Of a DNA stretch of 64,000 nt, positions 1,905-55,728 are shown piece by piece. This DNA comes from a plasmid: the sequence record NZ_LC532224.1; one strand, 5' to 3'. A model generated the notes under the pieces. The model was not told where the DNA came from. It worked only from the letters and a program-made list of their open reading frames with translations, and made no database searches. The position numbers were made by a program, and so were the translations under genes. Position 1 is the first letter of the stretch; each line of letters begins with the position of its first letter.

Positions 1905-1950
1905 CGGATTCTACTCCCCCCCAGTAAAATATACTACCCCCCAGTAGAAT
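1905..1950. promoter_or_regulatory. Tandem RcnR operator sites (TACT-C6/G6-AGTA) in the rcnR-rcnA intergenic region
   Basis: Two copies of TACTCCCCCCAGTA / TACTACCCCCCAGTAG read directly. This matches the known RcnR G-tract operator architecture. Confidence 0.6.
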
Positions 1951-1996
1951 AACGCTGGTATAGTTACATAAAATATCCAGGAGAGTGAGAGCCCAC

Positions 1997-2269: not shown

Positions 2270-2734
2270 CAGTTTGGCTAAAAGCCCTGAGCATTAATTT
2301 ATCTAAATAACACGTTATCAAGTGACGGTTTTGGGCTGTTTGTAGCGGCATAGTGAGTTTGTTTAATCAATGAGCTTTAAGATGCCCCCCTTCATGCAAG
2401 GCAACGCGTACATTTCTGGTACATCTACTTCCCTTACTTTGCTCAGGGCAACCCACATTGTTAAAGCCTCTACTCGCTGACCATCAAAATCACCCAACGT
2501 CAGATAATGGAAAAAAATTTTGGATGACATTTTGAAACGTGTCCTCTGCTGTGAACGTCGAGAGATGCTACGCGAGAAAGGAGATGACCTACTTAGTATC
2601 CTGTTAAGTAGGTCTATCTGAAGAAGTAGACAACTTTAAAGTCTTTTTCATGTTAAAGGAGACAACTTTAATGTCTGTGTACACCTACCTTTGCTCAAAT
2701 CAAAATGTTCTGACATACCAAAATGGAGTGTAAA

Positions 2735-3553
2735 ATGACTCAAAACCAGGGTTCTGAGCCAGTACCGGCGAGCCGGACAGGGCAGCTCATCAGCGCCCGG
2801 GATATGGCCATGCAGAAATTCGAAGAAGGGATGCGGTTAATCTCGGAAGCGTCGGAACTGTGCGGTCTCTCTCTCTTCACCAGCAGAATTATGCAGCCCA
2901 ACGCATTTGGTCTTCCGTCGTCACTGGATCGCACCATCGAGGAGGGGCGTAAGGAAATTGACCGTAAAACGTGGAAAAGGCTCTTTGAAGAAATAGGTAT
3001 GGACCGGTACTGGAACCATAAGCAAAAAGAAGCCTTTAACGAATCCCTACGTACGGATCCGCCCGTCGCTTCCCTGGAGATTGTTAAGGGAACATTACAG
3101 CATGCACTGGCTAACAGACGAGACACGCTTGCAGAAGGTTTCGTTGATGTTCTCAACAAGCTTGACCGAAGTTTTAAAAGCAATGCACGGCAATATACAA
3201 TGCCGAAAAAGCTTGTTCTTCGGGGGATTTTTCCTGGTGTGAACGTACTGAGGTACAACGGTTTCTCGCAGGACAATCACTTTTGTTTACGCGACTTTGA
3301 GAATATTGTATGCATCTGTTCTGATACTCCAACACCTGCAACCGGCGGTGGGCTGAGTATGGTCGACAGGCTGACGGCCATGAGAAATACAGATTTCACA
3401 GGCGAGGTCTGCGATGAGAATGGCTGGCGGTGTCGCCTGTTTGAGAATGGAAACGTTCATATTTGTATCGACAGTATCTCGCTTCTGAATGCTCTGAACG
3501 ATCTTATCAGCATATATTTTGCAAACCAGCTTCCGGCCGCAGGAAAAAAATGA
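2735..3553 (+). CDS. Hypothetical plasmid protein (about 272 aa)
   Basis: Long ORF with no recognised motif. Its stop overlaps the downstream coiled-coil gene (ATGATGA). Confidence 0.5.
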   Translation: MTQNQGSEPVPASRTGQLISARDMAMQKFEEGMRLISEASELCGLSLFTSRIMQPNAFGLPSSLDRTIEEGRKEIDRKTWKRLFEEIGMDRYWNHKQKEAFNESLRTDPPVASLEIVKGTLQHALANRRDTLAEGFVDVLNKLDRSFKSNARQYTMPKKLVLRGIFPGVNVLRYNGFSQDNHFCLRDFENIVCICSDTPTPATGGGLSMVDRLTAMRNTDFTGEVCDENGWRCRLFENGNVHICIDSISLLNALNDLISIYFANQLPAAGKK

Positions 3554-4755
3554 TGATCGAAAACGATAAAGAAAAAAGCCTGAACGATGCTACCTCGCCA
3601 GAGGTGCAGAATGACATCCGCAGCGAATCCACAGAAAAATCAAAGGAAATGGGTCGTTCAAGGTACTCATCTATTGCGATGATCGATTACTTCAATGCAA
3701 TCGAACGTCTGTGCGAAGAGAAAAAAATTAACCCGGAAAATATCGATCTGAGCTTCAAAGTTCACTGGCTCAGAAACGCTGTTGGCGGCTCGTTTGCAAG
3801 GTCACAGGAGATGTTCGCTGAGTACCAGAAGTATGTTAAAGAGGTTCCTGAAGAGGCCCGTTACCTGGATATACCCGATGAGGTGAAGGTTGCACTCGGC
3901 GATATTATCTCGTACATCACCTGGCACTACCGTAGAAGCTATACCGCAATACAGAGTGATAGTGTTAAAAAAGCTGAAGCACGTAGCATGCAGCTGGAGG
4001 AGGAGGTAACGCAGCTTTTACAGCGGCTTGAGCAAAGCGCTACCGATATGGATGAGCTGAAACTTGAGAATCAGGCGCTACAGGGTCGATTAGAGATCCG
4101 GGACAGTACCGTCAAGGAGTTAGAAACAAGGCTGAATGTTGCCGAAGCAGAACTCGAAACCTGCCATCACCAGTTAGATAGCACACGGCATGAATTAAGC
4201 CTCGCACAGCAGTCAAATGACTCACTCTCCCAGCAACTGGCTGAACGTAAAACAGAGATCGCTGGTCACCTTGAATATCAAAAAAAGCTGAACGAAGAGA
4301 TCAACACTCAGCGTTCTGATAATGCCGGTCTTTCCAGACAATGCGACCAGTTAAGTCAGACTGTGTCAGATACAAAGGCAGAGAGGGACAGGTTTGAACA
4401 GGAATTGATTGCTGCACAGAACCTCTGTGCTGAGCTGAAAAGTGCACTGTCCGGGAAGGAGGGTGACCTGGTGGCGGTGAATGCCGAGCTTACTGAACTC
4501 CATAAACTAAACGAGTCGCTGAGCGCCGACCTGAAAAAAGTAACTTTGGTCAGCCAGGGCTATGAAGCGGAAGTGGCTGAACAAAGCAGTGAATTAAAAA
4601 CGCTCCAGTCCAAAGTAATGAAGCTGGAAGCTACCCTGGAGGCAGAGAAAACAATCTCAGAATCCCTGAAAGGCACCATTGATACATTGACTGGTGCAAT
4701 GGCAGGGGGAGGTACTGGAAAGTCAAAACAGCCGCGTAGTAGAAAAACATCATGA
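3550..4755 (+). CDS. KfrA-like protein: N-terminal domain plus long alpha-helical coiled coil
   Basis: From MMIENDKEKS. About 250 aa of heptad-like Q/E/L-rich repeats (LEEEVTQLLQRLEQ...). Translationally coupled to the upstream ORF. Confidence 0.45.
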   Translation: MMIENDKEKSLNDATSPEVQNDIRSESTEKSKEMGRSRYSSIAMIDYFNAIERLCEEKKINPENIDLSFKVHWLRNAVGGSFARSQEMFAEYQKYVKEVPEEARYLDIPDEVKVALGDIISYITWHYRRSYTAIQSDSVKKAEARSMQLEEEVTQLLQRLEQSATDMDELKLENQALQGRLEIRDSTVKELETRLNVAEAELETCHHQLDSTRHELSLAQQSNDSLSQQLAERKTEIAGHLEYQKKLNEEINTQRSDNAGLSRQCDQLSQTVSDTKAERDRFEQELIAAQNLCAELKSALSGKEGDLVAVNAELTELHKLNESLSADLKKVTLVSQGYEAEVAEQSSELKTLQSKVMKLEATLEAEKTISESLKGTIDTLTGAMAGGGTGKSKQPRSRKTS

Positions 4756-39102: not shown

Positions 39103-40491
39103 TTACTTGACTGGCAAGTTTCCTGCTCTGATGGTCAATGCCTCGATGCTGTCTATATTGTTCTGAAGCCGTTCCAGTTCTGCCTTTTCAATACCGGCCC
39201 AAAGCTTTAAGTGTCGCTGATAAAGGGACCACTTGAGTGAGTGAAAACCATTCCAGGCCAACCCCATCCAGGAGGCGTAATTCGCATTGAGAATATTGCC
39301 GGTGATATACATTTTACCTGCGTTAACAGCACTGGAAGTTCCATAACCCAGGGCAAGCATCATCCGGAAGCGTGGATTTAGCCGCAACGGCATGGTATCC
39401 AGTAAGGTCTCCCCAAAAGCTCCTTTTCCCAGCGATACCTGTTTCGCCACATAGAAAACCCGCATCAAAACTTCCATTATGCTCATCGGAATACTTGTCA
39501 CGATAAACTGACGAAAGTCATACCCGTTGACATACATGTACTCTATTTGTTTGCCGAAGTTAGAACTCCCCACAGGGATCCCCTCAAGCATACGAAGTAG
39601 CCCCATAAAAGGAGCCGGTAACCCCATGCCACGGTTTCCTTTTGCTGAGGGGGCATTAACATCCGATGCCAGGTGTCCAAACATTCTGGCGATGAGCCTG
39701 AAAATATTGGTTTCGTCTGTAACGCCTTTACTGGAAGGATAAACCACGATCTGTCCATTCTGAACCACCGTACAGGTCCCGTTCAGCATATCCTTTATAC
39801 CGAAAATAATGCCCAGTACGGGATCGTGTGACAAAGCTCTTAAGCGGTGATTTGTGGGAGACAAAACGCCACCGGCCGCACCCACTAAATCGCTGCTGAT
39901 CGAACTGTCTGGTGCCCCTATAGGGAACAAATCTGAGAGTTTTGTACTCAGGTCCTCCGGCAAAATGGCATTGAAGGCTTTCTGCACCTGTTTATTGAAA
40001 ATACCATCCACTTCTGCCGTAAAGCTCACCGTAGGTTTTGGCGGGGCTCTGACGCAAAGTAAATCCAGCATGGATGCTATGAGCCCGCATCCGCAGGCAA
40101 TAGCATAATCCCAGGCGTCGAGTGCGTAGCGATCATTAAATTCTTTAATATGATTCTGGATCCGGGCATCTACAACAGCCAAGTCATCCGTGGAGAGTAT
40201 TGTGGCCAGTCCAATATCACTGCATACACGCTGGTTAGCCTCGCTATATATAGTCTTGAGACCAGTAGAATGCATGGCAGTATCTGAAGGGGTCATTTCT
40301 CGCAGATGATGTTCTTTAAGCGCCAGATGCTCCGCTTCATCAAGTTCAGTGCCGCTGATTAGCCCGGTCAACTGTGCCTTAAGGCTCTCTATATCACTGT
40401 TAATTGTCTCGTGAGCGTTCGCGATATCCTGACCACGGAGCTGAATATAACGGATGGCCCTGAACTCATCATCATAAGGAGACTGACTCAT
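39103..40491 (-). CDS. Hypothetical 462-aa protein, third gene of the protease operon
   Basis: No nucleotide-binding or known motif seen. 4 bp after the upstream gene. Confidence 0.55.
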   Translation of the reverse strand: MSQSPYDDEFRAIRYIQLRGQDIANAHETINSDIESLKAQLTGLISGTELDEAEHLALKEHHLREMTPSDTAMHSTGLKTIYSEANQRVCSDIGLATILSTDDLAVVDARIQNHIKEFNDRYALDAWDYAIACGCGLIASMLDLLCVRAPPKPTVSFTAEVDGIFNKQVQKAFNAILPEDLSTKLSDLFPIGAPDSSISSDLVGAAGGVLSPTNHRLRALSHDPVLGIIFGIKDMLNGTCTVVQNGQIVVYPSSKGVTDETNIFRLIARMFGHLASDVNAPSAKGNRGMGLPAPFMGLLRMLEGIPVGSSNFGKQIEYMYVNGYDFRQFIVTSIPMSIMEVLMRVFYVAKQVSLGKGAFGETLLDTMPLRLNPRFRMMLALGYGTSSAVNAGKMYITGNILNANYASWMGLAWNGFHSLKWSLYQRHLKLWAGIEKAELERLQNNIDSIEALTIRAGNLPVK

Positions 40492-40495
40492 GTGT

Positions 40496-41065
40496 TTACC
40501 TCACCGCGACCAGGCTACCTTTTGGAGCTTTCTTAGTAAGCATGTCGATTGTTGCCTTGATGCCAGCAATTTCTGCCTTAAAATATTCCGCATTCGACAT
40601 CAACCTTTCCTGAACTTCGTAGAGCTTTTGGATGGCCTGACTAAGGGCGGCTGTCAGTTTCGCATTTTTTTTGTGTTTCACTATCGCGTACCCGCCAATC
40701 CCTAACACAGCTACAGGTGCGGCCAATACCGCAATGCCTGCAACCATACCGCCACCGACGATAGACCCTGCTGTAGCGAGCCCGGAGGTTATGCCTGCTG
40801 CTGACACTCCCGTTGTACCAAGCGTATAGAGAGCACCGAAGGAAGCCGCTGCGCCTACGCCTGACCCCGCCAAAGCTGCTGCGCCCTCAGTAATACCCGG
40901 GAACTTATTTTCAAGCGCCTGAAGAGCACTTGTAACTTCATCCATTGCCTTCTTGCGAATTTTTTCGAGCTCTTCAGTTTCGGTAGCGTCCATTACAGGC
41001 CTCGTATTCATAACTTGCTGTGTGATAGGTGAAAAAGAGCACCATAAAAGTGATGAAGAAATCAT
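40496..41065 (-). CDS. Glycine-zipper membrane protein (Gly/Ala-rich TM hairpin between amphipathic helices)
   Basis: GSGVGAAASFGALYTLGTTGVSAAGITSGLATAGSIVGGGMVAGIAVLAAPVAVLGIGGYAIV. The likely start is the internal MDATETE. Confidence 0.5.
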   Translation of the reverse strand: MISSSLLWCSFSPITQQVMNTRPVMDATETEELEKIRKKAMDEVTSALQALENKFPGITEGAAALAGSGVGAAASFGALYTLGTTGVSAAGITSGLATAGSIVGGGMVAGIAVLAAPVAVLGIGGYAIVKHKKNAKLTAALSQAIQKLYEVQERLMSNAEYFKAEIAGIKATIDMLTKKAPKGSLVAVR

Positions 41066-41195
41066 GACTTACTATTGTGGCACTTTCGAGTTCATGTTTG
41101 TCAGTTTCAATGCTGTTGCTGTTAGTAAGGGCAGACGCCATATCGGGCAGACCCAAAATAACTATCGTGCCAGCGTCATTTTGGAACTGACTTTG

Positions 41196-41852
41196 CTAAA
41201 AATCAGTAGCGGACTGAACAGACATGTGTGGATTTGAATCTGGGCAGGTTCCAGACATTATTCCAACCAGACTTCCAATGACAAAATGCTCGTCATTCTC
41301 GGAGACGACATAGGGTCCACCAGAGCAACCATCGGTGTTGAAATGTGCTATTACAAAGCGAGTTGTGAGATGTTGGGGAGAATGATTTGAGCAATTTAAA
41401 GGCCAAATGCCTGAAACTTCACCAGGGAATGTCGAAATTGTTGTCTCATTCATTGGATATCCGACACCCAATGTACCCATGCCAGCTGCGGGAGCCAGGA
41501 CCTTAAAGTAACTACTTACAGGCTGTTGTATTCCAGCTGGTAATACGATTTCTGCACTGTCAACAAACGGAATGCCGTCTTTAAAGTCTGCCCTGTCATT
41601 AGCCTCATTGAGAATGAAATCGACTAGAACAGGCTCTTCGTTCACCAGTCCTTGATGGTTAAGAAATTTGACGTAAAGTTTAAGTGTATTGCTGACGGGA
41701 TAAATTTTTCCAAGAGCATTGGTAACAACATGGGCTGCGGTGAGAATCTTTTGCTGCTGACCATTATCGAAACCAAACGCAGTTGCTTCGAGATGGCTAC
41801 TAAAATGAGGATCATTGCTTACATAGATTTTACAAACGTAGTTTTCAAACAT
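41196..41852 (-). CDS. Cytoplasmic trypsin-like serine protease (218 aa, no signal peptide)
   Basis: His (LTAAHVV) and Ser (DGCSGGP) in trypsin order. Confidence 0.6.
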   Translation of the reverse strand: MFENYVCKIYVSNDPHFSSHLEATAFGFDNGQQQKILTAAHVVTNALGKIYPVSNTLKLYVKFLNHQGLVNEEPVLVDFILNEANDRADFKDGIPFVDSAEIVLPAGIQQPVSSYFKVLAPAAGMGTLGVGYPMNETTISTFPGEVSGIWPLNCSNHSPQHLTTRFVIAHFNTDGCSGGPYVVSENDEHFVIGSLVGIMSGTCPDSNPHMSVQSATDF

Positions 41853-42903: not shown

Positions 42904-43823
42904 CACAATCCTTACGCTGTAGGGGCCTGTTTGTGTTATCACTGCTTCCGGTTTTTACTTCGCACAACCCGGCAGGTATCCGGTCGCCCGGGCGTCCTTT
43001 GCGGTCTTGTTCGCCCTTCGCCTGAATTACGTCAAATCCCTTTCACTACCCGGCCGCAGGGTGACACCTCCCCTTTTCTCCGGAAGCGAAAGAGGAAGAA
43101 CAGTTTAACAGCCCGGATCCTCAATAATTTTCGCGTAACGGACTAAATAACCGGTTTATGCAGCTTCTGATAACCACAGACCGCGATAGAATAAAACGTC
43201 TGGTGAGGAACCGGAGTGTTATGTAAGCGGGGGGTTTAACTGGGTATCTGTGTAGTCCTATTTAGCCAGATATCCCGAATAAAAACCTCAACGATTAGGT
43301 AAACGAAATGGATGGATTCTGGTCGATGTTCTGTTTGTTTGTCGTGGTAGTTTCACTGCATAAAGCCCTTTCTGTAGCAGCAGCACGAGCAGACGCAGCA
43401 AAATTAAATATGCTTCTCAGAATGAGAAAGTTTAAAAAGTAGCTTTCAAGACATCTGAGAATTCTTTTAAATCCTCAGAGGAAGTTATATGTTTAGGCTA
43501 TTTGCAAACTAAGGTTGGAATTCCATCATTCTAGCCTTAGATCTTTGATCAAGTGAAGTTGCTCACTTGGTTGGATTTTACCGTTTCCTGACGGCTTTTC
43601 AGAAGCGAGGGCTGGTTGGAATGCCTTCCAGCTAGAAGTCTTGCAGATGCTCTCCGGGCATTAACTCATTGTCGAATCTGCACCAGTATCACTAGGTTGT
43701 TGAGCGGGCGATTAGCTTTTTCACTGAGCCGCTGTACACTCGACTGCTTCAAGAAGCACTACTTACCATTTGCCTGCCGTAAGGTCTGTTCTTAGCTGGA
43801 TTTTTTTGGGAGGATACGCAGTC

Positions 43824-44810
43824 ATGACAACTCAATCCAGCTCAATACAATACGCTTACGCGCTAGACGGCGAGGGCACCCTCACGCACATTGGCGCTGC
43901 CCTGCGCTCACATACTTACACCTGCCCAGGTTGTAAGAGCCCCCTGACCCCGGTAATGGGCGAGTTCAACGCTAAGCACTTTCGCCATTCGGAAGAATGC
44001 TGTGCCCTTGAAACCTATCTTCACAAGTGCGGCAAAGAAGCATTCTTCTATCGCTACCAACAAGCTCTCAGCCGTGAAATGCCTATTAGCCTTGAGCTGG
44101 AGCGCCGGGTTGCCTGTAATGGTTCTCGTTTAGCCTTGGTTAGAGACGAAGCACGTCAGTGCGTAAAATCCGTGCCTGCACGCTACAACTTGACTCAATT
44201 TTTCGATCAGGCAGAGCTGGAAAAACACGATAAGGTCACAGGGCTGCGACCAGACGTGATGTTGTATGATACGACTGGCGAAAGGCGTTGCTACGTAGAG
44301 ATTTGTGTCACACACCCCTGCTCTCAAGACAAGATCGAAGCCGGTATCCCGATTCTTGAGTTTAAGGTCCAATCTGCCTCTGATATTCAGATGTTGCTTA
44401 CCGGGGCCTACTCGATCAAGGAGAAGATCCTGAGAGTATTCAACTGGCTTCCCCCGTTTCAATCTGTGGACACCTGTAGCGGCGTCTGCTCAGTAGGTAA
44501 CGTGGATATGTCTGTCTGGAGTTTAAGTGGTTCCGGCCGACTCAACGAACAAACGATGCCGCTCGCTGAAGTGGATTTAACAATCAATTCTGACGTGAAC
44601 ACATGGCCTAGATCGTTAGGGGCCGCTGAGCTGGCTGATAACTTACGAGCTTTTATCCGTCACGCCGATCCTCATTCACTATTTCCCAACTGCATTATGT
44701 GCGAGCAAGCAGGCCGATGGGAGGATGGCTATCTGCAATGTCACAGTAAGGCAAAGATCGTTCCCTACACCGAGGCCCGTCAGTGCGCCAATTACAAGGT
44801 TAAGGCATGA
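43824..44810 (+). CDS. CoiA-like zinc-ribbon plus PD-(D/E)xK-type nuclease-domain protein
   Basis: Strong SD GGGAGGA before ATG(MTTQSS). CPGC...G....KHFRH (CoiA N-terminal pattern). RPDVMLYD...VEICVTH nuclease-core-like block. Cys/His-rich C-terminus. Stop overlaps the helicase ATG (ATGA). Confidence 0.5.
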   Translation: MTTQSSSIQYAYALDGEGTLTHIGAALRSHTYTCPGCKSPLTPVMGEFNAKHFRHSEECCALETYLHKCGKEAFFYRYQQALSREMPISLELERRVACNGSRLALVRDEARQCVKSVPARYNLTQFFDQAELEKHDKVTGLRPDVMLYDTTGERRCYVEICVTHPCSQDKIEAGIPILEFKVQSASDIQMLLTGAYSIKEKILRVFNWLPPFQSVDTCSGVCSVGNVDMSVWSLSGSGRLNEQTMPLAEVDLTINSDVNTWPRSLGAAELADNLRAFIRHADPHSLFPNCIMCEQAGRWEDGYLQCHSKAKIVPYTEARQCANYKVKA

Positions 44811-46471
44811 CCAAAAGACTGACTTGGGAGCAGAAAAGTATTGTCAGCCATGACACCGGACATGCGTTGGTAAAAGCCGTACCTGGTAGCGGGAAAACAA
44901 CCACACTTGTAAAGCGCGTTGAGCGGCTGGTCAAGACGGGAACTGATCCTCGCTCCATTCTGATCCTGATGTACAACAAGTCGGCGCAGGTGAGCTTCAC
45001 GGAGAACTTGAAGACGGCACTGATGTCGAGCGTGATTCCAGAAATCCGCACGTTCCACAGCTTGGCCTTAAAGATTGTTGGTTACGGAGAACGCCAACAG
45101 ATAATCAAGAAGAAAGACCTCATTACTCCAAGCGACTACCGCTATGAGCAACTGGTAAAGCAAGCCTACCGCTATGGCTTTGACCATGAGGCGAATTATA
45201 TTGACCCCAATGAAATTGAAAACTTCGAGCTGTTTATTGCTCGCTGCCGGGCGGCGGCCGTAACTCCTGTTGATGCTGCCAATGATCCAACGTTCAGCAA
45301 CATCAAACGGGAGTTTATTCACGCCTATGGCCGCTATTGTGAGCTGCTGGAGGAAAACAGTCTGCGAACCTTTGATGACTGTTTGATTGAGGCTGTCGCA
45401 CTGTTGCGTAATGACAGCAGCCTTGGTGCCCACTTCAAGCACATCATTGTTGATGAATATCAGGACGTTAACCTGATACAGCATGACATGACCCGCTTGC
45501 TATCTAAGTCGGATACGTCGGTTATGGCTGTTGGTGATGTTAACCAGTGTATTTATGAGTGGCGTGGTGCTCGACCAGACTTTATCGGCGGACTGTTTGA
45601 AAGGCACTACCCGAATACGAAGGTGTTTCAACTGTCATGCACGTTCAGATTTGGCCATGAGCTTTCCTTGATGGCTAACTCGGTAATTCGGCGCAACTCT
45701 ACAAAGCTGACCAAGCTTTGTGTCAGTCATCCTAGCACCCCCAAAACAGAGGTCAGATTGCACTTTGATAACTGCCTATCCAAGGTGCTATCAAACCTCT
45801 CGGTGAGCAGTGGAACACAAGCCATATTGTCCCGCACTAAGGCGAACCTTGCTGAGGCGGAAATTGCTTTACGCCTGTGTGGGCTACCTTATCGCTACCT
45901 CAATGGTTCAAGCGCATTACACACCCGCACCGAAATCGGGATACTGGTAGTTGGCGTCTTGCTGTCTGTGTACGGCGATCTGCGGCTACTGGAAAACCAT
46001 CCCAACAAACAAGCGATTGTTTACGGCTTTCTGAAGGAGGCTGGTTTTAGATGGCAGAAAGGGCAATTCAAAGCGGCGCTCAGTGGATTGATGGCTCCGC
46101 ACGCCGACCTATGGTCTGCTCTAGGTCAGTTATTCGAGGGCGCACAATACCAAAAAGATCGGCTGGGCAGGCTCGCCACTATCTGCCAGAAAGACGGAGA
46201 GGAAACGCCTGCTATCGATGTGTTACGACGCCTGAGTATGGAGGGTTTCATTGATAGTGTTGGCTCTGAGGGTGTAACTCGCACTGGATCGAACGACCAG
46301 CAACGAGGGGTCGTGAGGATCGGGGAGCTACTTGACTCCAGTAAGATCGATTCCCGCACGTTTTTAAACCTTATCTTGAATCCAGGCGAGGCTGCTACTG
46401 ACTGCGATCCCTTCATCCTTTCCACACTGCATGGTTCCAAGGGGCTGGAGTGGGATAACGTAATACTGATC
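44807..46471 (+). pseudogene. UvrD/PcrA-like superfamily-1 helicase, N-terminal 555 codons (gene split by transposon)
   Basis: Walker A AVPGSGKTTTLVKR. Motif II IVDEYQD. The ORF reads through the Tn IR into IS5075. Confidence 0.8.
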
Positions 46472-46492
46472 GGGGTCGTCTCAGAAAACGGA

Positions 46493-47819
46493 ATCTATGG
46501 TCACTCCCGTTTTTGCAACACCGATTTTGACGACAAGTTGGCTTGCTTGAATCTATCCGGCGTCTGAATGGGATTTTATTCCCGCGCCTTGATGAGTTCC
46601 GCGCCTGATGAACCTCCAGAAAATATACGGCTTCAATGAGCCTTTCCGTTTTACAGGTTCCTCAACAGGCCGGTGGGCCGTTAGTATCATCAATATCAGT
46701 ATTCGCAAAACCAGATCAGTAATTCTTTAAACCGGTGTATTTCTGCCGTTATGCTACATAAGTTTGCTGTCGTGCCGTTAGGGCCCAGGCTATTCTGGCC
46801 AGCTTGTTTGCCAGAGCACAAGTGACGACAAAGTTGCTTTTCCGGCACAGTAAATCCCTGACCCAATCGGCCAATTTGCCAGACTGGTGTTCCAGTTTTT
46901 GTATGAATACCCTGGCACATTGAACCAACAAAGTTCGGATCTTTTTATTACCTCGCTTACTAATTCCCAGCAATGTCGTCCTACCTCCCGTGCTGTACTG
47001 CCGAGGTACAAGCCCTGTTGCCGCCGCAAAGTCACGGCTGCTGGCGTACTGCTTCCCGTCGCCAATCTCAGTTGAAATAGTACTCGCTGTCAGTGTTCCG
47101 ACGCAGGGAATGCTCAGCAAGCGCTGTCCAACCTCATCTTCGTCCAACTTTCGTTTCAACTGGGATTCCAAATCTTTAATCTGCTCAACAAGATAGTGAT
47201 AATGCTGTTGTAATTTCAGCAATAACTGGCTGAGGTAAAGAGGCAAACTATTATCCTCAAGAATGGTACTCAGTCGGCTAATAACGGCAGCTCCTCGGGG
47301 AACGCTAATGCCAAATTCCAGCAGAAAAGCATGCATTTGATTGGTTGTTTTTACCTTATCCTGAACCAGGGATTCACGGACACGATGCAGAGCCCGCATT
47401 GCCTGCTGAGATTCCGTTCTGGGCTGCACAAAACGCATAGACGGACGCGATGCAGCTTCACAAATAGCTTCGGCGTCGACAAAGTCGTTTTTATTGCTTT
47501 TAACGAACGGGCGGACAAATTGTGGTGATATCAGCTTTGGGGAATGCCCCAACTCTTCCAACTTGCGTGCCATAAAGTGAGAACCGCCACAGGCTTCCAT
47601 TGCGATGGTTGTAGCGGGGCATGTCGCCAAAAATTCGATCAACTTTGGCCGGGTAAATTTTTTACGGTAAACAGCCTTCCCGCGACGATCCTGGCAATGA
47701 ATATGGAAAGAGTTTTTACCCAGATCGATACCAATGAGCGCAATGTTTTCCATGATAGTTCTCCGAATGAAAGCCTGTCCTCAGCATAGTACCGGGAAGG
47801 AGGGAGTGACCATCTCATT
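46493..47819 (-). mobile_element. IS5075/IS4321-type IS (IS110/IS1111 family), 1327 bp, copy A, inserted in the transposon IR
   Basis: Identical to copy B in inverted orientation. IS110-family elements make no duplication. Confidence 0.85.
46749..47753 (-). CDS. IS110-family transposase (334 aa)
   Basis: MENIALIGIDLGKNSFHIHCQDRRGKAVY... is identical in both copies. Confidence 0.9.
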   Translation of the reverse strand: MENIALIGIDLGKNSFHIHCQDRRGKAVYRKKFTRPKLIEFLATCPATTIAMEACGGSHFMARKLEELGHSPKLISPQFVRPFVKSNKNDFVDAEAICEAASRPSMRFVQPRTESQQAMRALHRVRESLVQDKVKTTNQMHAFLLEFGISVPRGAAVISRLSTILEDNSLPLYLSQLLLKLQQHYHYLVEQIKDLESQLKRKLDEDEVGQRLLSIPCVGTLTASTISTEIGDGKQYASSRDFAAATGLVPRQYSTGGRTTLLGISKRGNKKIRTLLVQCARVFIQKLEHQSGKLADWVRDLLCRKSNFVVTCALANKLARIAWALTARQQTYVA

Positions 47820-47831
47820 AAATAAAGCACG

Positions 47832-48389
47832 CTAAGCGTGCGTGGAGGCTGGCACCCAGCGGTACAGCGTCGGAATGGACACGCCGAGGTTCTTGGCCAC
47901 GTCCTTGGGCGGCACCCCGCTGGCCAGCAGCTTCTTGGCCGACTCGATCTTGCTGTCGGTCATCTTCGGCTTGCGGCCGCCTTTGCGGCCGAGCTGCTTG
48001 GCGACTTCCAGCCCGGCGCGGGTGCGCTCGACGGTCAGCTCGCGCTCCATTTCGGCAAGGCTCGCCATGACGTGGAAGAAGAACCGCCCGGATGGTGTGC
48101 CGGTGTCGATGGAGTCGGTGAGGCTCCTGAACTGGACACCGTGCTTGTGCAGATCGCCGACCAGATCGACCAGTTGCTTGACCGACCGGCCCAGCCGGTC
48201 GAGCTTCCAGACGACCAAAGTATCGCCTTCGCGCAGCATTTCGAGCGTCTTGGCCAAGCCAGGCCGGTCTGCCCGCGTGCCACTCACCTTGTCCTCGAAG
48301 ACCTTTTTACATCCGGCCTTGCTCAAGGCTTCGCGTTGCAGCTCCAGGTTCTGATCCTGCGTCGAGACGCGCGCATAGCCAATCAACAT
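47832..48389 (-). CDS. tnpR: Serine recombinase / resolvase TnpR
   Basis: GYARVSTQDQNLELQ catalytic Ser motif and C-terminal HTH. The gene ends at the IR. Confidence 0.85.
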   Translation of the reverse strand: MLIGYARVSTQDQNLELQREALSKAGCKKVFEDKVSGTRADRPGLAKTLEMLREGDTLVVWKLDRLGRSVKQLVDLVGDLHKHGVQFRSLTDSIDTGTPSGRFFFHVMASLAEMERELTVERTRAGLEVAKQLGRKGGRKPKMTDSKIESAKKLLASGVPPKDVAKNLGVSIPTLYRWVPASTHA

Positions 48390-48754
48390 GGCTTGTCTCG
48401 CGCCCGGTCGATGCGTTCCTGCATCGCCTGCATCACTTCTTCGTGGGTGTACGATCTGGCGTTGGCGTCGGTGGCTTGCCGCAGGGCTTCCTCAACCTCG
48501 CGCGTCATCCGCTCGTAATCCTCCGGCCACAGCGCTTGCTCCATGCGCAGCGACGCCTGACTCAGCAGGTGCAGCAGGCTGAACAGCCGCATGTCGTTGG
48601 TGGCGACGATGCGCTCCCGAATCTGCTCCTGAATAGCTTCGCTAGCCCGATGCGCTTGTGGTGTGGCAGTCCCCTCGTAGTCAGCGGGGAATTCCGCTTC
48701 CTCGGCAATCCTTGCCCAGGCGCTGGCCAGCGCCTCGATGGTTGACGTGCTCAT
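48383..48754 (-). CDS. Hypothetical 123-aa protein upstream of tnpR
   Basis: Start MSTSTIEAL immediately after the upstream stop. Confidence 0.4.
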   Translation of the reverse strand: MSTSTIEALASAWARIAEEAEFPADYEGTATPQAHRASEAIQEQIRERIVATNDMRLFSLLHLLSQASLRMEQALWPEDYERMTREVEEALRQATDANARSYTHEEVMQAMQERIDRARDKPC

Positions 48755-49263
48755 TTCCGCCGCTCCTGTGCTCTTTGGCGAATCAACCGGCCAAGGGGCC
48801 TCGACGCGAAAACCAGCAGCATCACGCCTATCGGATACCAGGTCGAGAAGACCACCAAGGCATCGAAGGCTGGCCGTCCGGTGTTGGTAGGCAGTACGGC
48901 GGTCACAGCCATCAACCCGCCGACCGTCCAGATGATGCGCCACACGTAGGGCATCACGCGGGGCACGTAGCCGTCATCGAAAGCGGTCTGGTAGTAGCGG
49001 CGCAGGCCGCGCTCGGCAAGCGCCTGGCGCTGCCGCTCCGACAGCGCATCCGTCCGGCCATACCAGCGCCGGAATGGTGGACAGCGCAGCAGCAAAGGGG
49101 TGAAGAGGATCATCACCGCCACGATCGCGACACCCCACGCCATGACGGCGCCGGCATCGGGCCGCTTGGCGTTCTCGATCACGGGCGCGAAGACGCCCGG
49201 AGCACCGATCATCCAGAACAGCGCAATGTGCTGATGGAAGGAGAGCTTCATTTGCTCATCCAC
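48751..49263 (-). CDS. Membrane protein (170 aa)
   Basis: Three or four TM helices. Confidence 0.45.
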   Translation of the reverse strand: MDEQMKLSFHQHIALFWMIGAPGVFAPVIENAKRPDAGAVMAWGVAIVAVMILFTPLLLRCPPFRRWYGRTDALSERQRQALAERGLRRYYQTAFDDGYVPRVMPYVWRIIWTVGGLMAVTAVLPTNTGRPAFDALVVFSTWYPIGVMLLVFASRPLGRLIRQRAQERRK

Positions 49264-49574
49264 TTGCGCAGCAGGCGCTTTTTCAGGGAGGCGCGTTCTT
49301 GCGGGTTGCGTCCCTTGTGATTGGCGATGCGATCCGCCGTGGCGGCCTGGCGCTTGACGGGCCAGTAGGAGCGGCCATCCTTGCCCATCGACCAGACGCT
49401 GCTGGCCTGGTTTTCCAGCAGGGGCAGATGGGCGCTCAGGGCTTCGGGCGACGCGCTGGTCAGCGCCGTGCGCTCACGGGTGCGCCAGCGCTGATGCCAG
49501 AGCTTCTTGTTCTCGCGCTCGCTGCCGCAGGTCGTGTGCCCGACGATGGGTGTTTTGCGGCGGCTGCGGCTCAT
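49248..49574 (-). CDS. Small basic protein (108 aa)
   Basis: Arg/Lys-rich. Confidence 0.35.
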   Translation of the reverse strand: MSRSRRKTPIVGHTTCGSERENKKLWHQRWRTRERTALTSASPEALSAHLPLLENQASSVWSMGKDGRSYWPVKRQAATADRIANHKGRNPQERASLKKRLLRKWMSK

Positions 49575-49828
49575 AACGTAGTGGTCTCCAAGAACATTCA
49601 GGACTGATCCCAGGCGTCGATGGTCAAGACCTGATCGGCAGGACAGGCGGCTACGCGGTCGGGAACTGGATGGTGTTCAGTCTCATGCCGACCCCATTCG
49701 ATTGATCGCGTCGCTTGCGGCACGCTGCGACGCAAGGAGGTTTGCGACCTGGTTTAGCAGCCGTGTCCGCTGCATGTCTGTTACCTATCTCCCCGACCGC
49801 TCATTGGACCAACTCCAGAGATTGGGCT

Positions 49829-50185
49829 CTATCGCTCAGCCAATACGAAACCGGCATTGGCTGATGCCACAACCGAGACTAACACAAATGGCTCGGTACC
49901 TGTATTTCGCGCCCCGTGCACTTGGCCCGGTCTTGCCACGGCTATCTCACCTTCCCTGAGGGCACGAACAATCCCATTGCCCTGAAAGTAATCAGCCATT
50001 CCCGACAAAACAGTCCACGTGTCTTGGCCGTGAGGATGAATGTGAGCCGCAATTTCCTGCCCGGGATGGACATGCCAAACCACGATAATTGAGTCTCGGG
50101 TTTCAAGCACAACGGAACGAATAGGCTCGCCTTCGGACGGCTGAACATACTCGGCTACAGAAAATATTCTCGATTCAACAGTCAT
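49829..50185 (-). CDS. Cupin-domain protein
   Basis: WHVHPGQEIAAHIHPHGQD...GQVHGARN two-His cupin motifs. Confidence 0.6.
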   Translation of the reverse strand: MTVESRIFSVAEYVQPSEGEPIRSVVLETRDSIIVVWHVHPGQEIAAHIHPHGQDTWTVLSGMADYFQGNGIVRALREGEIAVARPGQVHGARNTGTEPFVLVSVVASANAGFVLAER

Positions 50186-50576
50186 CGGAGATCCCTCTTT
50201 CACAGTTGTCGTTACGGTCTTCATCGTCGGCATCCTGACGCACGGCGGGCAATTGCTGGAGCAACGCCGGCAGCCATTCCTGTACCGTCTCCCACACCAC
50301 ATCGAGGTTGATGTCGAAATAGCCGTGAGCCATGCGATTACGCATATTGCGCATGCTGCGCCACGGCACGTCGGCATGCGCCTGGGTGAACTCGACGTAG
50401 CCATCCATCACCTTTGTGGCCGCCTCGCCGATGACGATCAGGCTCATGATGACGGCCTGCTGGGTGCGCTTGTCGGCCAAGAAGTCGTCCTTGGCCATCC
50501 CTTCCACGAAGCTGCGCGCATCGGTTGCGGCCTGCTGAATGTGGTCGAGGTAATCGGGCAGGCGGTTCTCGCTCAT
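50175..50576 (-). CDS. hepT: HepT-like (DUF86/HEPN) toxin
   Basis: R(N)xxxH motif RNRMAHGY near the C-terminus. Overlaps the mntA stop by 4 nt. Confidence 0.7.
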   Translation of the reverse strand: MSENRLPDYLDHIQQAATDARSFVEGMAKDDFLADKRTQQAVIMSLIVIGEAATKVMDGYVEFTQAHADVPWRSMRNMRNRMAHGYFDINLDVVWETVQEWLPALLQQLPAVRQDADDEDRNDNCERGISDDC

Positions 50577-50869
50577 ATCGGTTGCGCCTCCGCGAGCACC
50601 TTGGCCCGGAACTTCGGCGGCAGGTCGCCGGGAGTCAGCAGATCGACGTCAACGCCGAGCAGCGATTTCAGTTCTTCTTCCAAATCGCCCAAGTCCAACA
50701 ACGTGGCACCGGGCAGCGCATCGACCAACAGGTCGAGGTCGCTGCCATCCCGGTCGGTGCCATGCAGCACCGAGCCGAAGACGCGCGGGTTCGCGGCGCG
50801 AAAGCGGCCTACCGCTTCACGCACTGCGCTTCGCTTCATGTCAAGCACAACAGACGGTCGCATGCGCAT
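50573..50869 (-). CDS. mntA: MntA-like minimal nucleotidyltransferase antitoxin
   Basis: GSVLHGTDRDGSDLDLLV nucleotidyltransferase signature (GS...D.D). Confidence 0.7.
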   Translation of the reverse strand: MRMRPSVVLDMKRSAVREAVGRFRAANPRVFGSVLHGTDRDGSDLDLLVDALPGATLLDLGDLEEELKSLLGVDVDLLTPGDLPPKFRAKVLAEAQPI

Positions 50870-51021
50870 CCTTTCTTATCGAAACTCGTTGAGATGATAT
50901 GCAATCAAGAATAGAATTTCAAGAACTATTTTCGAGAATCGCAATGCCTTGATTCCCGTGCCGCGCCGGTTGCCTTGGCGGGCTTGTCACAAACCTACGT
51001 TTTCAAGAAGAAGGAAACCGC

Positions 51022-53988
51022 ATGCCCCGCCGTTCGATCCTCTCCGCCGCCGAGCGCGAAAGCCTGCTGGCGTTGCCGGACACCAAGGATGAGTTGATCC
51101 GTCACTACACGTTCAGCGAAAGCGACCTCTCCATCATCCGGCAGCGGCGCGGCCCGGCCAATCGGCTGGGCTTCGCGGTGCAGCTCTGCTACCTGCGCTT
51201 TCCCGGCGTCATCCTTGGCGCTGATGAGCCACCGTTCCCGCCATTGCTGAGACTGGTCGCCAACCAGCTCAAGGTCGGCATCGAAAGCTGGGACGAGTAC
51301 GGGCAGCGTGAGCAGACCCGACGCGAGCACCTGGTCGAGCTGCAAACGGTGTTCGGCTTCCAGCCGTTCACGATTGGCCACTACCGGCAGGCTGTCCAGT
51401 TGCTGACCGAGCTGGCCATGCAAACCGACAAGGGCATCGTGCTGGCCAGAGCCTTGATCGAGCACCTGCGGCGGCAGTCGGTCATTGTGCCCGCCCTCAA
51501 CGCCGTCGAGCGGGCGAGCGCCGAAGCGATTACCCGCGCCAACCGGCGTCTCTACGACGCCTTGGCTGAGCCGCTGACGGACGTGCATCGCCGTCGCCTC
51601 GACGATCTGCTCAAGCGCCGCGACAACGGCAAGACGACGTGGCTGGCCTGGCTGCGGCAATCCCCGGTCAAACCGAACTCGCGGCACATGCTGGAACACA
51701 TCGAACGCCTCAAGGCGTGGCAGGCGCTCGACCTGCCCTCCGGCATCGAGCGGCTGGTTCACCAGAACCGGCTGCTCAAGATCGCCCGCGAGGGCGGCCA
51801 GATGACGCCCGCCGACCTGGCGAAGTTCGAGCCGCAGCGGCGTTACGCGACCCTGGTGGCGCTCGCCATCGAGGGCATGGCCACCGTCACCGACGAAATC
51901 ATCGACCTGCATGACCGCATCCTGGGCAAGCTGTTCAATGCCGCCAAGAACAAGCATCAGCAGCAGTTCCAGGCATCCGGCAAGGCGATCAATGCCAAGG
52001 TGCGGCTGTTCGGGCGCATCGGCCAGGCGCTGATCGAGGCCAAGCAAGCGGGCCGCGATCCGTTCGCCGCCATCGAGGCCGTCATGTCCTGGGATGCTTT
52101 CGCCGAGAGCGTCACCGAAGCGCAGCGGCTCGCGCAACCCGAGGACTTCGATTTCCTGCACCGCATCGGCGAGAGCTACGCCACGCTGCGCCGCTACGCG
52201 CCGGAATTTCTCGACGTGCTCAAGTTGCGGGCCGCGCCCGCCGCCAAGGACGTACTCGACGCCATCGAGGTGCTGCGCAGCATGAACAGCGACAACGCCC
52301 GCAAGGTGCCCACCGACGCGCCGACCGAGTTCATCAAGCCGCGCTGGCAGAAGCTGGTGATGACCGACACCGGCATCGACCGGCGCTACTACGAACTGTG
52401 CGCGCTGTCGGAGCTGAAGAACGCGCTGCGCTCCGGCGACATCTGGGTGCAAGGCTCGCGCCAGTTCAAGGACTTCGAGGACTACCTGGTGCCGCCCGCG
52501 AAATTCGCCAGCCTCAAGCAGGCCAGCGAATTGCCGCTGGCCGTGGCCACCGATTGCGACCAGTACCTGCATGACCGGCTGACGCTGCTGGAAACGCAGC
52601 TCGCCACCGTCAACCGCATGGCGCTGGCCAACGAGCTGCCGGACGCCATCATCACGGAGTCGGGCCTGAAGATCACGCCGCTCGATGCGGCGGTGCCCGA
52701 TACCGCACAGGCCCTGATCGACCAGACGGCGATGATCCTACCGCACGTCAAGATCACCGAATTGCTGCTGGAGGTAGACGAATGGACGGGCTTCACCCGG
52801 CACTTCGCCCACCTGAAGTCAGGCGACCTGGCCAAGGACAAAAACCTGTTGCTGACCACGATCCTCGCCGACGCGATCAACCTGGGCCTGACCAAGATGG
52901 CGGAATCGTGCCCCGGCACGACCTACGCCAAGCTGGCCTGGCTGCAAGCCTGGCACATCCGCGACGAAACCTACGGGGCGGCACTGGCCGAGCTGGTCAA
53001 CGCGCAGTTCCGACATCCCTTCGCCGGGCATTGGGGCGACGGCACCACGTCATCGTCGGACGGCCAGAACTTCCGCACCGGCAGCAAGGCCGAGAGCACC
53101 GGCCACATCAATCCGAAATACGGCAGCAGCCCAGGGCGGACGTTCTACACCCATATCTCCGACCAGTACGCGCCGTTCCACACCAAGGTCGTGAACGTCG
53201 GCGTGCGCGACTCGACCTACGTGCTCGACGGCCTGCTGTATCACGAATCCGACCTGCGGATCGAGGAGCACTACACCGACACGGCAGGGTTCACGGACCA
53301 CGTCTTCGCGTTGATGCACCTGCTGGGCTTCCGCTTCGCCCCGCGCATTCGTGACCTGGGCGACACCAAGCTCTACATCCCGAAGGGCGATGCCACCTAC
53401 GAGGCGTTGAAACCGATGATCGGCGGCACGCTCAACATCAAGCACGTCCGCGCCCATTGGGATGAAATCCTGCGGATGGCCACCTCGATCAAGCAGGGCA
53501 CGGCGACGGCCTCGCTGATGCTCAGGAAGCTTGGCAGCTACCCGCGCCAGAACGGCCTGGCCGTCGCCCTGCGTGAGCTGGGACGCATCGAGCGCACACT
53601 GTTCATCCTGGACTGGCTGCAAAGCGTCGAGCTGCGCCGCCGCGTGCATGCCGGGCTGAACAAAGGCGAGGCGCGCAACGCGCTGGCCCGCGCCGTGTTC
53701 TTCAACCGCCTGGGGGAAATCCGCGACCGCAGCTTCGAGCAGCAGCGCTACCGGGCCAGCGGCCTCAACCTGGTGACGGCGGCCATCGTGCTATGGAACA
53801 CGGTCTATCTGGAGCGGGCCGCGAACGCCTTGCGTGGCCACGGTCAAGCCGTCGATGACGGCCTGTTGCAGTACCTGTCGCCGCTCGGCTGGGAGCACAT
53901 CAACCTGACCGGCGATTACCTCTGGCGCAGCAGCGCCAAGATCGGCGCGGGCAAGTTCAGGCCGCTACGGCCGCTGCAACCGGCTTAG
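51022..53988 (+). CDS. tnpA: Tn21-subgroup Tn3-family transposase TnpA (988 aa)
   Basis: [31 protein letters not shown]... is near-collinear with Tn21/Tn501 TnpA as I recall it. The gene ends at the IR. Confidence 0.95.
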
Positions 53989-54001
53989 CGTGCTTTATTT
54001 A

Positions 54002-55328
54002 ATGAGATGGTCACTCCCTCCTTCCCGGTACTATGCTGAGGACAGGCTTTCATTCGGAGAACTATCATGGAAAACATTGCGCTCATTGGTATCGATCTGG
54101 GTAAAAACTCTTTCCATATTCATTGCCAGGATCGTCGCGGGAAGGCTGTTTACCGTAAAAAATTTACCCGGCCAAAGTTGATCGAATTTTTGGCGACATG
54201 CCCCGCTACAACCATCGCAATGGAAGCCTGTGGCGGTTCTCACTTTATGGCACGCAAGTTGGAAGAGTTGGGGCATTCCCCAAAGCTGATATCACCACAA
54301 TTTGTCCGCCCGTTCGTTAAAAGCAATAAAAACGACTTTGTCGACGCCGAAGCTATTTGTGAAGCTGCATCGCGTCCGTCTATGCGTTTTGTGCAGCCCA
54401 GAACGGAATCTCAGCAGGCAATGCGGGCTCTGCATCGTGTCCGTGAATCCCTGGTTCAGGATAAGGTAAAAACAACCAATCAAATGCATGCTTTTCTGCT
54501 GGAATTTGGCATTAGCGTTCCCCGAGGAGCTGCCGTTATTAGCCGACTGAGTACCATTCTTGAGGATAATAGTTTGCCTCTTTACCTCAGCCAGTTATTG
54601 CTGAAATTACAACAGCATTATCACTATCTTGTTGAGCAGATTAAAGATTTGGAATCCCAGTTGAAACGAAAGTTGGACGAAGATGAGGTTGGACAGCGCT
54701 TGCTGAGCATTCCCTGCGTCGGAACACTGACAGCGAGTACTATTTCAACTGAGATTGGCGACGGGAAGCAGTACGCCAGCAGCCGTGACTTTGCGGCGGC
54801 AACAGGGCTTGTACCTCGGCAGTACAGCACGGGAGGTAGGACGACATTGCTGGGAATTAGTAAGCGAGGTAATAAAAAGATCCGAACTTTGTTGGTTCAA
54901 TGTGCCAGGGTATTCATACAAAAACTGGAACACCAGTCTGGCAAATTGGCCGATTGGGTCAGGGATTTACTGTGCCGGAAAAGCAACTTTGTCGTCACTT
55001 GTGCTCTGGCAAACAAGCTGGCCAGAATAGCCTGGGCCCTAACGGCACGACAGCAAACTTATGTAGCATAACGGCAGAAATACACCGGTTTAAAGAATTA
55101 CTGATCTGGTTTTGCGAATACTGATATTGATGATACTAACGGCCCACCGGCCTGTTGAGGAACCTGTAAAACGGAAAGGCTCATTGAAGCCGTATATTTT
55201 CTGGAGGTTCATCAGGCGCGGAACTCATCAAGGCGCGGGAATAAAATCCCATTCAGACGCCGGATAGATTCAAGCAAGCCAACTTGTCGTCAAAATCGGT
55301 GTTGCAAAAACGGGAGTGACCATAGATT
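54002..55328 (+). mobile_element. IS5075/IS4321-type IS, copy B, inserted in the other transposon IR at the same IR position
   Basis: Junction CTTAGCGTGCTTTATTT|AATGAGATGG ... CCATAGAT|TCCGTTTTCTGAGACGACCCC. Confidence 0.85.
54067..55071 (+). CDS. IS110-family transposase (334 aa)
   Basis: Identical to the copy at 46749-47753. Confidence 0.9.
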   Translation: MENIALIGIDLGKNSFHIHCQDRRGKAVYRKKFTRPKLIEFLATCPATTIAMEACGGSHFMARKLEELGHSPKLISPQFVRPFVKSNKNDFVDAEAICEAASRPSMRFVQPRTESQQAMRALHRVRESLVQDKVKTTNQMHAFLLEFGISVPRGAAVISRLSTILEDNSLPLYLSQLLLKLQQHYHYLVEQIKDLESQLKRKLDEDEVGQRLLSIPCVGTLTASTISTEIGDGKQYASSRDFAAATGLVPRQYSTGGRTTLLGISKRGNKKIRTLLVQCARVFIQKLEHQSGKLADWVRDLLCRKSNFVVTCALANKLARIAWALTARQQTYVA

Positions 55329-55348
55329 CCGTTTTCTGAGACGACCCC

Positions 55349-55728
55349 TGATCGGGCTGAATGAGCAGGAATTTCCTGGCGGCAAACCCGATGATGTTTA
55401 CAGCGTTCGCACATCGATGAACACCCCTCCGGCCGAAGAGGAAATCGAGGAGGAACGTCGGCTGTTTTATGTCGGTATCACTCGCACAAAACAGCAGCTA
55501 AATCTGGTGGTCCCTCTTGATGAAGGGCTTGCGCGGTGGCTCAAAAACCGCTGGGATAGCACCCCGAAGAAGTCACCGATAGCTACTCGCTTCGTCTATG
55601 AGGCTGGCTGGACTGCTTGTGCGGTTACCAGTGATGCGATCTATAACAGCACGGTAGAGAAACAGAAGGCTGACTTCAGCAAGTTTCACCAATGGTATCT
55701 AAGAGATCTTCAGCGGCTAAAAGTCTAG
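55349..55728 (+). pseudogene. UvrD-like helicase C-terminal fragment (distal to the transposon)
   Basis: Reads in frame from the TGATC duplication (IGLNEQEFPGGKPDDVYSV...) and contains helicase motif VI RLFYVGITRTKQQL. Confidence 0.8.

Follow-up and report, generated by a model that had tools for sequence, protein, structure and literature searches.

An interrupted nuclease-helicase operon in an IncHI2 plasmid backbone

The window analysed here, a stretch of 64,000 nucleotides (nt) from plasmid sequence record NZ_LC532224.1, is part of an IncHI2 plasmid backbone and carries, between positions 43824 and 55728, two overlapping genes read in the same direction. Gene 1 encodes a predicted zinc-finger nuclease, and gene 2 a UvrD-like helicase whose coding sequence is split by a transposon. 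A GGGAGG Shine-Dalgarno sequence lies 8 nt before the ATG of gene 1 (43824), and the ATG of gene 2 (44807) forms, as ATGA, a 4-nt overlap with the stop codon of gene 1. An initial annotation of this stretch had described the two genes as coupled through this overlap, which we located at 44807-44810. The operon and its interruption comprise the following features (aa, amino acids; ORF, open reading frame).

43824-44810, plus strand: gene 1, 328 aa, WP_000211823.1, annotated as 'hypothetical'; predicted zinc-finger PD-(D/E)xK nuclease
44807-46471, plus strand: helicase gene (gene 2), proximal part, codons 1-555; motifs I (GSGKTTT), II (DEYQD), III and V
44807-46567, plus strand: truncated helicase ORF in its present state, 586 aa (555 native and 31 read-through)
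46467-46471: left TGATC target-site duplication, 5 bp
55349-55353: right TGATC target-site duplication, 5 bp
55354-55728, plus strand: helicase gene, distal part, codons 556-679 and stop; motif VI RRLFYVGITRTK at nt 55456-55491

Joining position 46471 to position 55354 yields a helicase ORF of 679 aa in frame, and the operon restored by this in silico excision (3,023 nt) shows 0 mismatches to the uninterrupted operon of plasmid R478 (NC_005211.1, nt 83841-86863), whose products are WP_000211823.1 (hypothetical protein) and WP_000166877.1 (ATP-dependent helicase). The proximal helicase part alone is 100% identical to R478. The existence of this intact allele proves, beyond the logic of the reading frame, that the two fragments derive from one ancestral gene of 679 aa, as had been proposed along with the TGATC duplication on either side of the insertion and the presence of motif VI in the distal fragment. 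The insertion parts motif V (TLHGSKGLEW, aa 540-549) from motif VI (aa 590-601), and the 31 read-through residues, which come from the transposon inverted repeat (IR) and IS4321, do not supply the latter. Motif VI is required for ATP-coupled function in superfamily 1 (SF1) helicases. Since motif VI and the C-terminus have been removed, the helicase-disrupted operon copy in the window should be inactive, with its nuclease gene intact.

Gene 1 encodes a predicted zinc-finger nuclease of a large, unnamed family

The gene 1 protein divides into three parts, for which residue conservation was read from an alignment of 60 sequences at 22-52% identity.

43923-43988, plus strand: C2H2 zinc finger of the CoiA_N type (C34, C37, H52, H55)
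44001-44366, plus strand: PD-(D/E)xK nuclease core, aa 60-181; invariant E63, H67, K71, E133, D144, E159, K170, E179
44406-44807, plus strand: Cys-rich C-terminal domain, aa 195-328; invariant C222, C290, C293, C306, C321

Besides the residues given as invariant in these rows, C34, C37, H55, C60 and C113 are conserved throughout the 60 relatives, and H52 nearly so. All motifs reported by the initial annotation in a protein of 328 aa were located: CPGC (aa 34-37), KHFRH (51-55), RPDVML (142-147), VEICVTH (158-164) and a Cys-rich tail (C218, C222, C290, C293, C306 and C321). The AlphaFold2 model (mean predicted local distance difference test score 84.8) displays the PD-(D/E)xK fold, with the catalytic Asp in beta2 and the catalytic Glu in beta3. 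In place of ExK, the sequence reads E-I-C and thus lacks the canonical Lys, whose charge K170 or K71 probably provides instead. The conservation of eight more cysteines points to two extra, putative metal sites. Altogether, the protein is best described as a zinc-finger PD-(D/E)xK protein with predicted nuclease activity.

The likeness to CoiA stated in the initial annotation holds for the finger and the general layout. CoiA_N (PF25164) was the sole Pfam match of the window protein, at 24.0 bits (E 2.8e-5), just below the cut-off of 26.3, and was matched by 60/60 relatives, many of them over the cut-off (best 7.7e-14). The likeness does not extend to the nuclease domain of CoiA (PF06054), which gave no match at E<=1 in the window protein or in any of the 60 diverse relatives (0/60), nor to the taxonomic and genetic setting, which is gammaproteobacterial and plasmid-borne. 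NCBIfam gave no match for gene 1. Sequence comparison with the PDB returned chance matches alone (E>=0.3) with no CoiA relative among them, and a Foldseek search of the model against the PDB returned nothing significant, the C-terminal domain being without a solved structural relative.

A word-indexed search of 5.8 billion proteins returned about 64 clusters at 50% identity or more to gene 1, all of about 328 aa and, where named, gammaproteobacterial. Furthermore, a profile search of 1.84 billion representatives recovered 3,236 clusters at E<=1e-3 and 316 at E<=1e-30; gene 1 thus belongs to a large, unnamed family. No homologue of gene 1 was found in phage genomes.

Gene 2 encodes a full-size UvrD/PcrA/Rep-type helicase

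The restored helicase matched the Pfam families UvrD-helicase (PF00580, 5.6e-45) and UvrD_C (PF13361, 1.1e-19, aa 537-606), and its motifs lie at aa 27-33 (GSGKTTT), 216-220 (DEYQD) and 590-601 (RRLFYVGITRTK). The assignment to superfamily 1 made by the initial annotation is thus borne out, and sequence comparison identifies the product as a full-size UvrD/PcrA/Rep-type SF1A helicase of 679 aa. The best solved-structure match was UvrD of D. radiodurans (full length, 123 bits), followed by PcrA and Rep, while the solved GajB aligned over about 85 residues (45 bits). In PADLOC v2, the best matches were GajB (4.5e-52, in two partial stretches) and RTasHel profiles, likewise partial. Orthology to the housekeeping helicases UvrD, Rep and PcrA was rejected, as scores of 129-173 bits compare with NCBIfam equivalog cut-offs of 911-1,168; the score against the HelD equivalog was also far under its cut-off.

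Nuclease and helicase genes travel together

To describe the pair beyond IncHI2 plasmids, we compared 13 genome loci from Aeromonas, Pseudomonas, Marinobacter, Motilimonas, Paraneptunicella and one metagenome-assembled genome. A helicase gene lies directly downstream of gene 1 with the 4-nt overlap in all of them (13/13), and all-against-all clustering of the flanking ORFs showed that gene 1 and the helicase gene are the only genes common to the loci. Among the metagenome pairs, the overlap is likewise present wherever the gene calls show it, down to 27% identity. These metagenome loci were obtained by look-up of the encoding contigs; identities are to the window pair.

P0066 (locus L022): nuclease 40%, helicase 50%; helicase cut by contig end; 4-nt overlap
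P0065 (locus L021): nuclease 37%, helicase 47%; helicase 691 aa; 4-nt overlap
P0068 (locus L036): nuclease 36%, helicase 43%; helicase cut by contig end; called start overlaps by 17 nt
P0074 (locus L023): nuclease 30%, helicase 34%; helicase 670 aa; 4-nt overlap
P0081 (locus L025): nuclease 28%, helicase 32%; helicase 668 aa; 4-nt overlap

The two identities fall together from pair to pair, indicating that nuclease and helicase diverge in parallel. Judged from these sequences, the two overlapping genes form a single, apparently horizontally mobile nuclease-helicase operon. More distant relatives (P0131, P0185, P0225, P0085, P0083 and P0084; 21-35% identity) are solo genes without a helicase, and the helicase-coupled clade is therefore a branch of a larger family of solo nucleases.

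Conservation also extends over the 135 nt or so that precede gene 1 in three Pseudomonas chromosomal loci, and not in the Aeromonas loci:

43688-43823, plus strand: conserved upstream leader or promoter region, 82-87% nucleotide identity to Pseudomonas loci L004, L007 and L009

These nucleotides might represent a promoter or leader moving along with the two genes. They showed no covarying pairs, and Rfam gave no matches in the whole window. Scans for promoters and terminators around the operon yielded nothing informative.

Defence genes recur around the pair

Known or candidate defence genes adjoin the pair at several loci. A HamB-like helicase gene and a small gene upstream of it, a Hachiman-like unit separate from the pair, lie directly upstream in L003, and SoFic (1.3e-47) does so in L006. 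Directly downstream are KwaA/KwaB (Kiwa) in L008 and Tmn (5e-52) in L026. In L022 (positions 1-4443), the pair (40% identity) follows right after a Tn7-like TniB-type ATPase gene and two genes for TniQ/TnsD proteins, and thus appears to be cargo of a Tn7-like transposon. MazEF, ParE and HNH genes are neighbours of the pair in L025.

In the window itself, the region upstream of gene 1 contains the following genes.

39103-41852, minus strand: Bunzi-like operon, 2 kb upstream of gene 1; trypsin-like protease, small membrane protein and BnzB-like protein of 462 aa
33065-38702, minus strand: two paralogous genes for HNH endonucleases, with a small ORF after each, and a hipA/helix-turn-helix (HTH) gene pair

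PADLOC matched the 462-aa protein strongly to BnzB (2.9e-53) and the membrane protein weakly to BnzA (1.6e-6); by these matches, 39103-41852 resembles a defence system of the Bunzi type extended by a protease gene and carried in the IncHI2 backbone. The HipA protein of the window showed a weak match to the PADLOC candidate PDC-M03A. The HNH nucleases, hipBA and protease operon that the initial annotation had placed nearby were recovered as the two HNH genes, hipA with its HTH gene, and the protease operon, as in a colinear annotated plasmid. Downstream of the pair, the IncHI2 backbone carries the tellurite (ter) cluster. The pair thus occupies a defence-island-like setting on the IncHI2 backbone. 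The initial annotation had taken such a setting as a sign of defence; the setting stands, and the defence function is an extrapolation from that context.

A Tn21-type transposon bearing two copies of IS4321 splits the helicase gene

The insertion is organized as follows.

46472-55348, 8,877 bp: insertion; Tn21-subgroup Tn3-family (ISPa38-like) unit transposon of 6,223 bp and two copies of IS4321
46494-47820, minus strand: IS4321 in the left 38-bp IR, 1,327 bp; transposase ORF 46749-47753
47832-48389, minus strand: tnpR resolvase, 185 aa; 'Recombinase family protein' in identical copies
49829-50869, minus strand: passengers: cupin gene, DUF86 gene and a small ORF next to the latter; cupin and DUF86 so named in identical copies
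51022-53988, plus strand: tnpA, Tn3-family transposase, 988 aa
54000-55326, plus strand: IS4321 in the right 38-bp IR, 1,327 bp; transposase ORF 54067-55071

The ends of the insertion are perfectly complementary inverted arms of 1,366 nt. In each arm, 22 bp of a Tn21-type IR (GGGGTCGTCTCAGAAAACGGAA) come first and are followed by the 1,327-bp IS4321 and the remaining 16 bp of the IR (AATAAAGCACGCTAAG), so that at both ends the 38-bp IR is split 22+16. The IR of 38 bp, the TnpA of about 990 aa, the TnpR and the 5-bp duplication place the element in the Tn21 subgroup of the Tn3 family, and identical elements are annotated in many plasmids as 'Tn3-like ISPa38 family transposase' and 'IS110-like IS4321'. 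Both IRs hold IS4321 at the same position and in mirror orientation. Several small ORFs also lie between the transposon arms, beside tnpR, the cupin and DUF86 genes and tnpA. The DUF86 gene and its small neighbour are presumably a putative HEPN/nucleotidyltransferase toxin-antitoxin pair.

The initial annotation had the helicase frame run into a 38-bp IR of a composite transposon and resume beyond it. The frame does enter the insertion and resumes at 55354, but the IR that it enters is the one split by IS4321. A composite transposon was rejected, as at either end of the insertion the terminal 22 bp come from a Tn21-type IR and not from the end of an IS4321, and the 5-bp duplication borders the transposon IRs while IS4321 sits inside each of them. 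IS4321 and IS5075 reportedly target specifically the 38-bp IRs of Tn21-family transposons, as Partridge and Hall are said to have described in 2003. On this basis, the 6,223-bp unit transposon made the duplication and was itself struck twice by IS4321. Given the known properties of the 38-bp IRs, the presence of IS4321 in both should immobilise the transposon.

The knock-out is a single inherited event in the IncHI2 population

In PLSDB, gene 1 was found in 803 plasmids, at 95% identity or more in 787 of them; nearly all carriers among the matches listed are Enterobacterales, and almost all matches are on IncHI2-type plasmids. At 99-100% identity, the pair is a stable part of the backbone in about 780 IncHI2 plasmids. 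A 600-nt probe spanning the restored junction matched 818 PLSDB records and was uninterrupted in 604, which together with the R478 operon provides intact copies of the kind that the initial annotation had proposed to look for in plasmid databases. The exact helicase-IR-IS4321 junction was found in at least 184 records. As the junction is identical in all of these plasmids, the knock-out is one inherited event, which marks a sublineage that has been successful. It demonstrates that plasmids can survive without the helicase, and nothing about cost follows from it. The idea, raised in the initial annotation, that recurrent inactivation signals a toxic or costly gene was accordingly rejected for this junction, which stands as one event against the 604 intact records.

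Other IncHI2 plasmids carry independent insertions of ISSen4 and ISEc33 inside gene 1, and insertions of four different elements, IS256, IS903B, IS100 and one of the IS3 family, in the 880-bp intergenic region upstream of it (42943-43823). Some database entries for the helicase and for gene 1 are truncated by frameshifts and diverge at C5/A4 and C5 homopolymers (45737-45750 and about 44450, respectively); sequencing errors, and not genuine loss of function, may account for them.

The pair differs from named nuclease-helicase systems

CoiA, the Bacillota competence protein that resolves D-loops, is a structure-specific nuclease working with the helicase RadA, and CoiA and YraN each act with a cognate helicase (bioRxiv 10.1101/2024.02.06.579203). 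CoiA shares with gene 1 the CoiA_N C2H2 finger and a common layout, in which the finger is followed by a PD-(D/E)xK core (Asp in beta2, Glu in beta3) and a C-terminal extension; both have an atypical catalytic motif and both are functionally tied to a helicase. In contrast, the gene 1 core is not of the PF06054 type, has inserts at aa 99-132 and carries the eight extra conserved cysteines. Instead of RadA, gene 1 has as its partner the product of the next gene in the operon, a UvrD-like helicase of the SF1A type, and every named homologue sharing at least 50% identity comes from Gammaproteobacteria, where it sits on a plasmid or island, rather than from Bacillota or a competence regulon. A CoiA-domain protein has been validated as anti-phage in E. 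coli (PMC9519451), and none of the PADLOC models of that protein matches the gene 1 family.

Gabija also combines a nuclease with a UvrD-family helicase in two genes found in defence islands, and its GajB profile was the best match of our helicase in the defence library (4.5e-52). However, GajA is an ATPase-TOPRIM protein of the OLD type whereas gene 1 encodes a zinc-finger PD-(D/E)xK protein, for which PADLOC and Pfam gave no GajA, OLD or TOPRIM match. GajB has about 495 aa, compared to about 680 aa for the helicase of the pair, which is nearer to UvrD/PcrA/Rep. In the pair, moreover, the nuclease gene comes first and overlaps the next by 4 nt. Hachiman resembles the pair in that a small nuclease of restriction-endonuclease fold is encoded directly upstream of a large helicase, and by analogy a similar logic is likely, the helicase sensing or remodelling DNA and the nuclease acting as effector. 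HamB is however a superfamily 2 helicase and HamA a DUF1837 protein, and neither protein of the pair matched HamA or HamB in PADLOC v2. AddAB, RecBCD, AdnAB and the class 2 OLD-UvrD pairs likewise join a UvrD-like SF1 motor to a PD-(D/E)xK-type nuclease; unlike these, the pair has a separate small zinc-finger nuclease, no second motor and no Chi-type logic, and its NCBIfam equivalog scores are far under the cut-offs. The AddB and Cas4 nucleases carry an iron-sulphur (Fe-S) 'staple', which the dispersed conserved cysteines of gene 1 may, by analogy, recall.

The N-terminus of DruB (profile positions 4-79) in PADLOC weakly matched the finger and first helix in 14/60 members of the gene 1 family (best 4.9e-5). 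In gene 1, the matching stretch is aa 13-85 (43860-44078). DruB, a component of type I Druantia, may therefore start with the same finger-nuclease module, but it has about 500 aa and the likeness is limited to about 75 residues. Druantia resembles the pair in having a helicase, DruE, but no further gene of that system is present.

In source annotations, the genes of the pair are called 'hypothetical', 'competence protein' or 'ATP-dependent helicase' only. As the initial annotation had it, the pair bears no system name, be it in PADLOC v2, NCBIfam or source annotations; it may have been described earlier under another name. These comparisons make the pair a good candidate for the class of nuclease-helicase defence systems, with parts unrelated to or different from those of Gabija and Hachiman.

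Possible functions of the pair

The most likely reading, which we hold with modest confidence, is that the pair constitutes an anti-phage or anti-plasmid nuclease-helicase system. Nuclease and helicase would act as a complex against incoming DNA, from a phage or a rival plasmid. The helicase would load on foreign DNA or on replication or recombination intermediates and unwind them or translocate along them, presenting single-stranded or branched DNA to a structure-selective nuclease that would then cleave it. In favour of this reading are the conserved pairing and overlap, the defence genes next to the pair at several loci, its patchy and mobile distribution, and two precedents, the action of CoiA with RadA and the anti-phage CoiA-domain protein. 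The Tn21-type transposon, with IS4321 in both IRs, entered after codon 555 with duplication of TGATC, and in the window such a system would be dead. The anatomy of the operon is firm; complex formation, substrate, nuclease activity and defence role are all put forward here as predictions. More tentatively, the pair could be an undescribed two-gene system of the IncHI2 defence island that cuts intermediates of invader DNA in the manner of CoiA-RadA or YraN-ComM, and that a common IncHI2 sublineage lost by one transposon insertion.

Several points weigh against a defence function. The absence of the canonical ExK lysine means that the catalytic competence of gene 1 is not guaranteed, and the existence of solo relatives implies that the nuclease is able to work alone. 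PADLOC v2, applied to the pair and the 60 relatives, returned GajB- and RTasHel-like matches for the helicase and the weak match to the DruB N-terminus, and no system. An association with defence genes is equally true of many non-defence cargo genes of mobile elements, and the stability of the pair in the backbone of about 780 plasmids also fits a role in plasmid maintenance. The literature searched contained no paper on the pair and no phenotype for its genes; the phage-inhibition phenotype of R478 is reportedly credited, in older literature, to the neighbouring ter cluster rather than to the pair.

A rather less likely explanation is that the pair is a plasmid or integrative and conjugative element accessory for recombination or repair of its own DNA. 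It would resolve D-loops, flaps or stalled forks while a transferred strand is being established, while multimers or branches are processed, or in recombination, by analogy with CoiA-RadA and YraN-ComM in transformation. The layout of gene 1, which matches that of CoiA in finger, core and C-terminal region, agrees with such a role, as does the cooperation of CoiA and YraN with cognate helicases. The helicase is closest over its full length to the repair helicases UvrD, PcrA and Rep and not to GajB (123 vs 45 bits), the pair hardly varies in the backbone of about 780 IncHI2 plasmids, and ORF translations point to conjugation, partition and UmuC-type neighbours in L007, L009, L004 and L014. Conversely, the nuclease core has no detectable sequence relation to PF06054 of CoiA (0/60), bona fide defence genes repeatedly adjoin the pair, and its distribution is patchy and single-copy, unlike that of core repair genes. 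Furthermore, at least 184 plasmids have persisted and spread with the helicase destroyed, from which it follows that the pair is dispensable for plasmid maintenance and transfer.

The same helicase-null plasmids bear on the improbable alternative of a selfish or competitive module, in which an addiction-like nuclease would be restrained by the helicase, or the pair would serve as an exclusion weapon against related plasmids and be retained since its loss is costly rather than for host defence. In these records, the nuclease gene is intact and the plasmids are viable without a functional helicase, indicating that the nuclease alone is not lethal at native expression. Solo nuclease homologues are moreover common, and the pair has no antitoxin-like small partner and no third conserved gene. 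That the two-gene unit moves between unrelated contexts, has toxin-antitoxin neighbours (HipA in the window, MazEF and ParE in L025) and, on other plasmids, has several times been hit independently by insertion sequences within gene 1 or shortly before it would fit such a module. Finally, the adjacency of the two genes could be incidental, or the genes could be decaying remnants without a joint function, as the inactivated copy in the window and the truncated variants of both proteins in databases might suggest. The conservation data essentially refute this explanation: overlap and gene order persist from 100% down to 27% identity while both proteins diverge in parallel, the catalytic and helicase motifs do not vary, and 604 plasmids have an uninterrupted junction.

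IncHI2 plasmids are major carriers of colistin and carbapenem resistance, and about 800 plasmids in PLSDB alone bear the pair. Should it give no phenotype, it would come down to an unremarkable backbone operon of hypothetical genes, interrupted by a common transposon. If instead it restricts phages or plasmids, it would shape the host range, the plasmid competition and the phage susceptibility of the strains that carry it, and the knock-out in about a fifth of the sequenced plasmids would offer ready-made isogenic comparisons. The pair would then also be the third case, after CoiA-RadA and YraN-ComM, of a finger nuclease of the CoiA type paired with a helicase, and would link the branch processing known from transformation to immunity.

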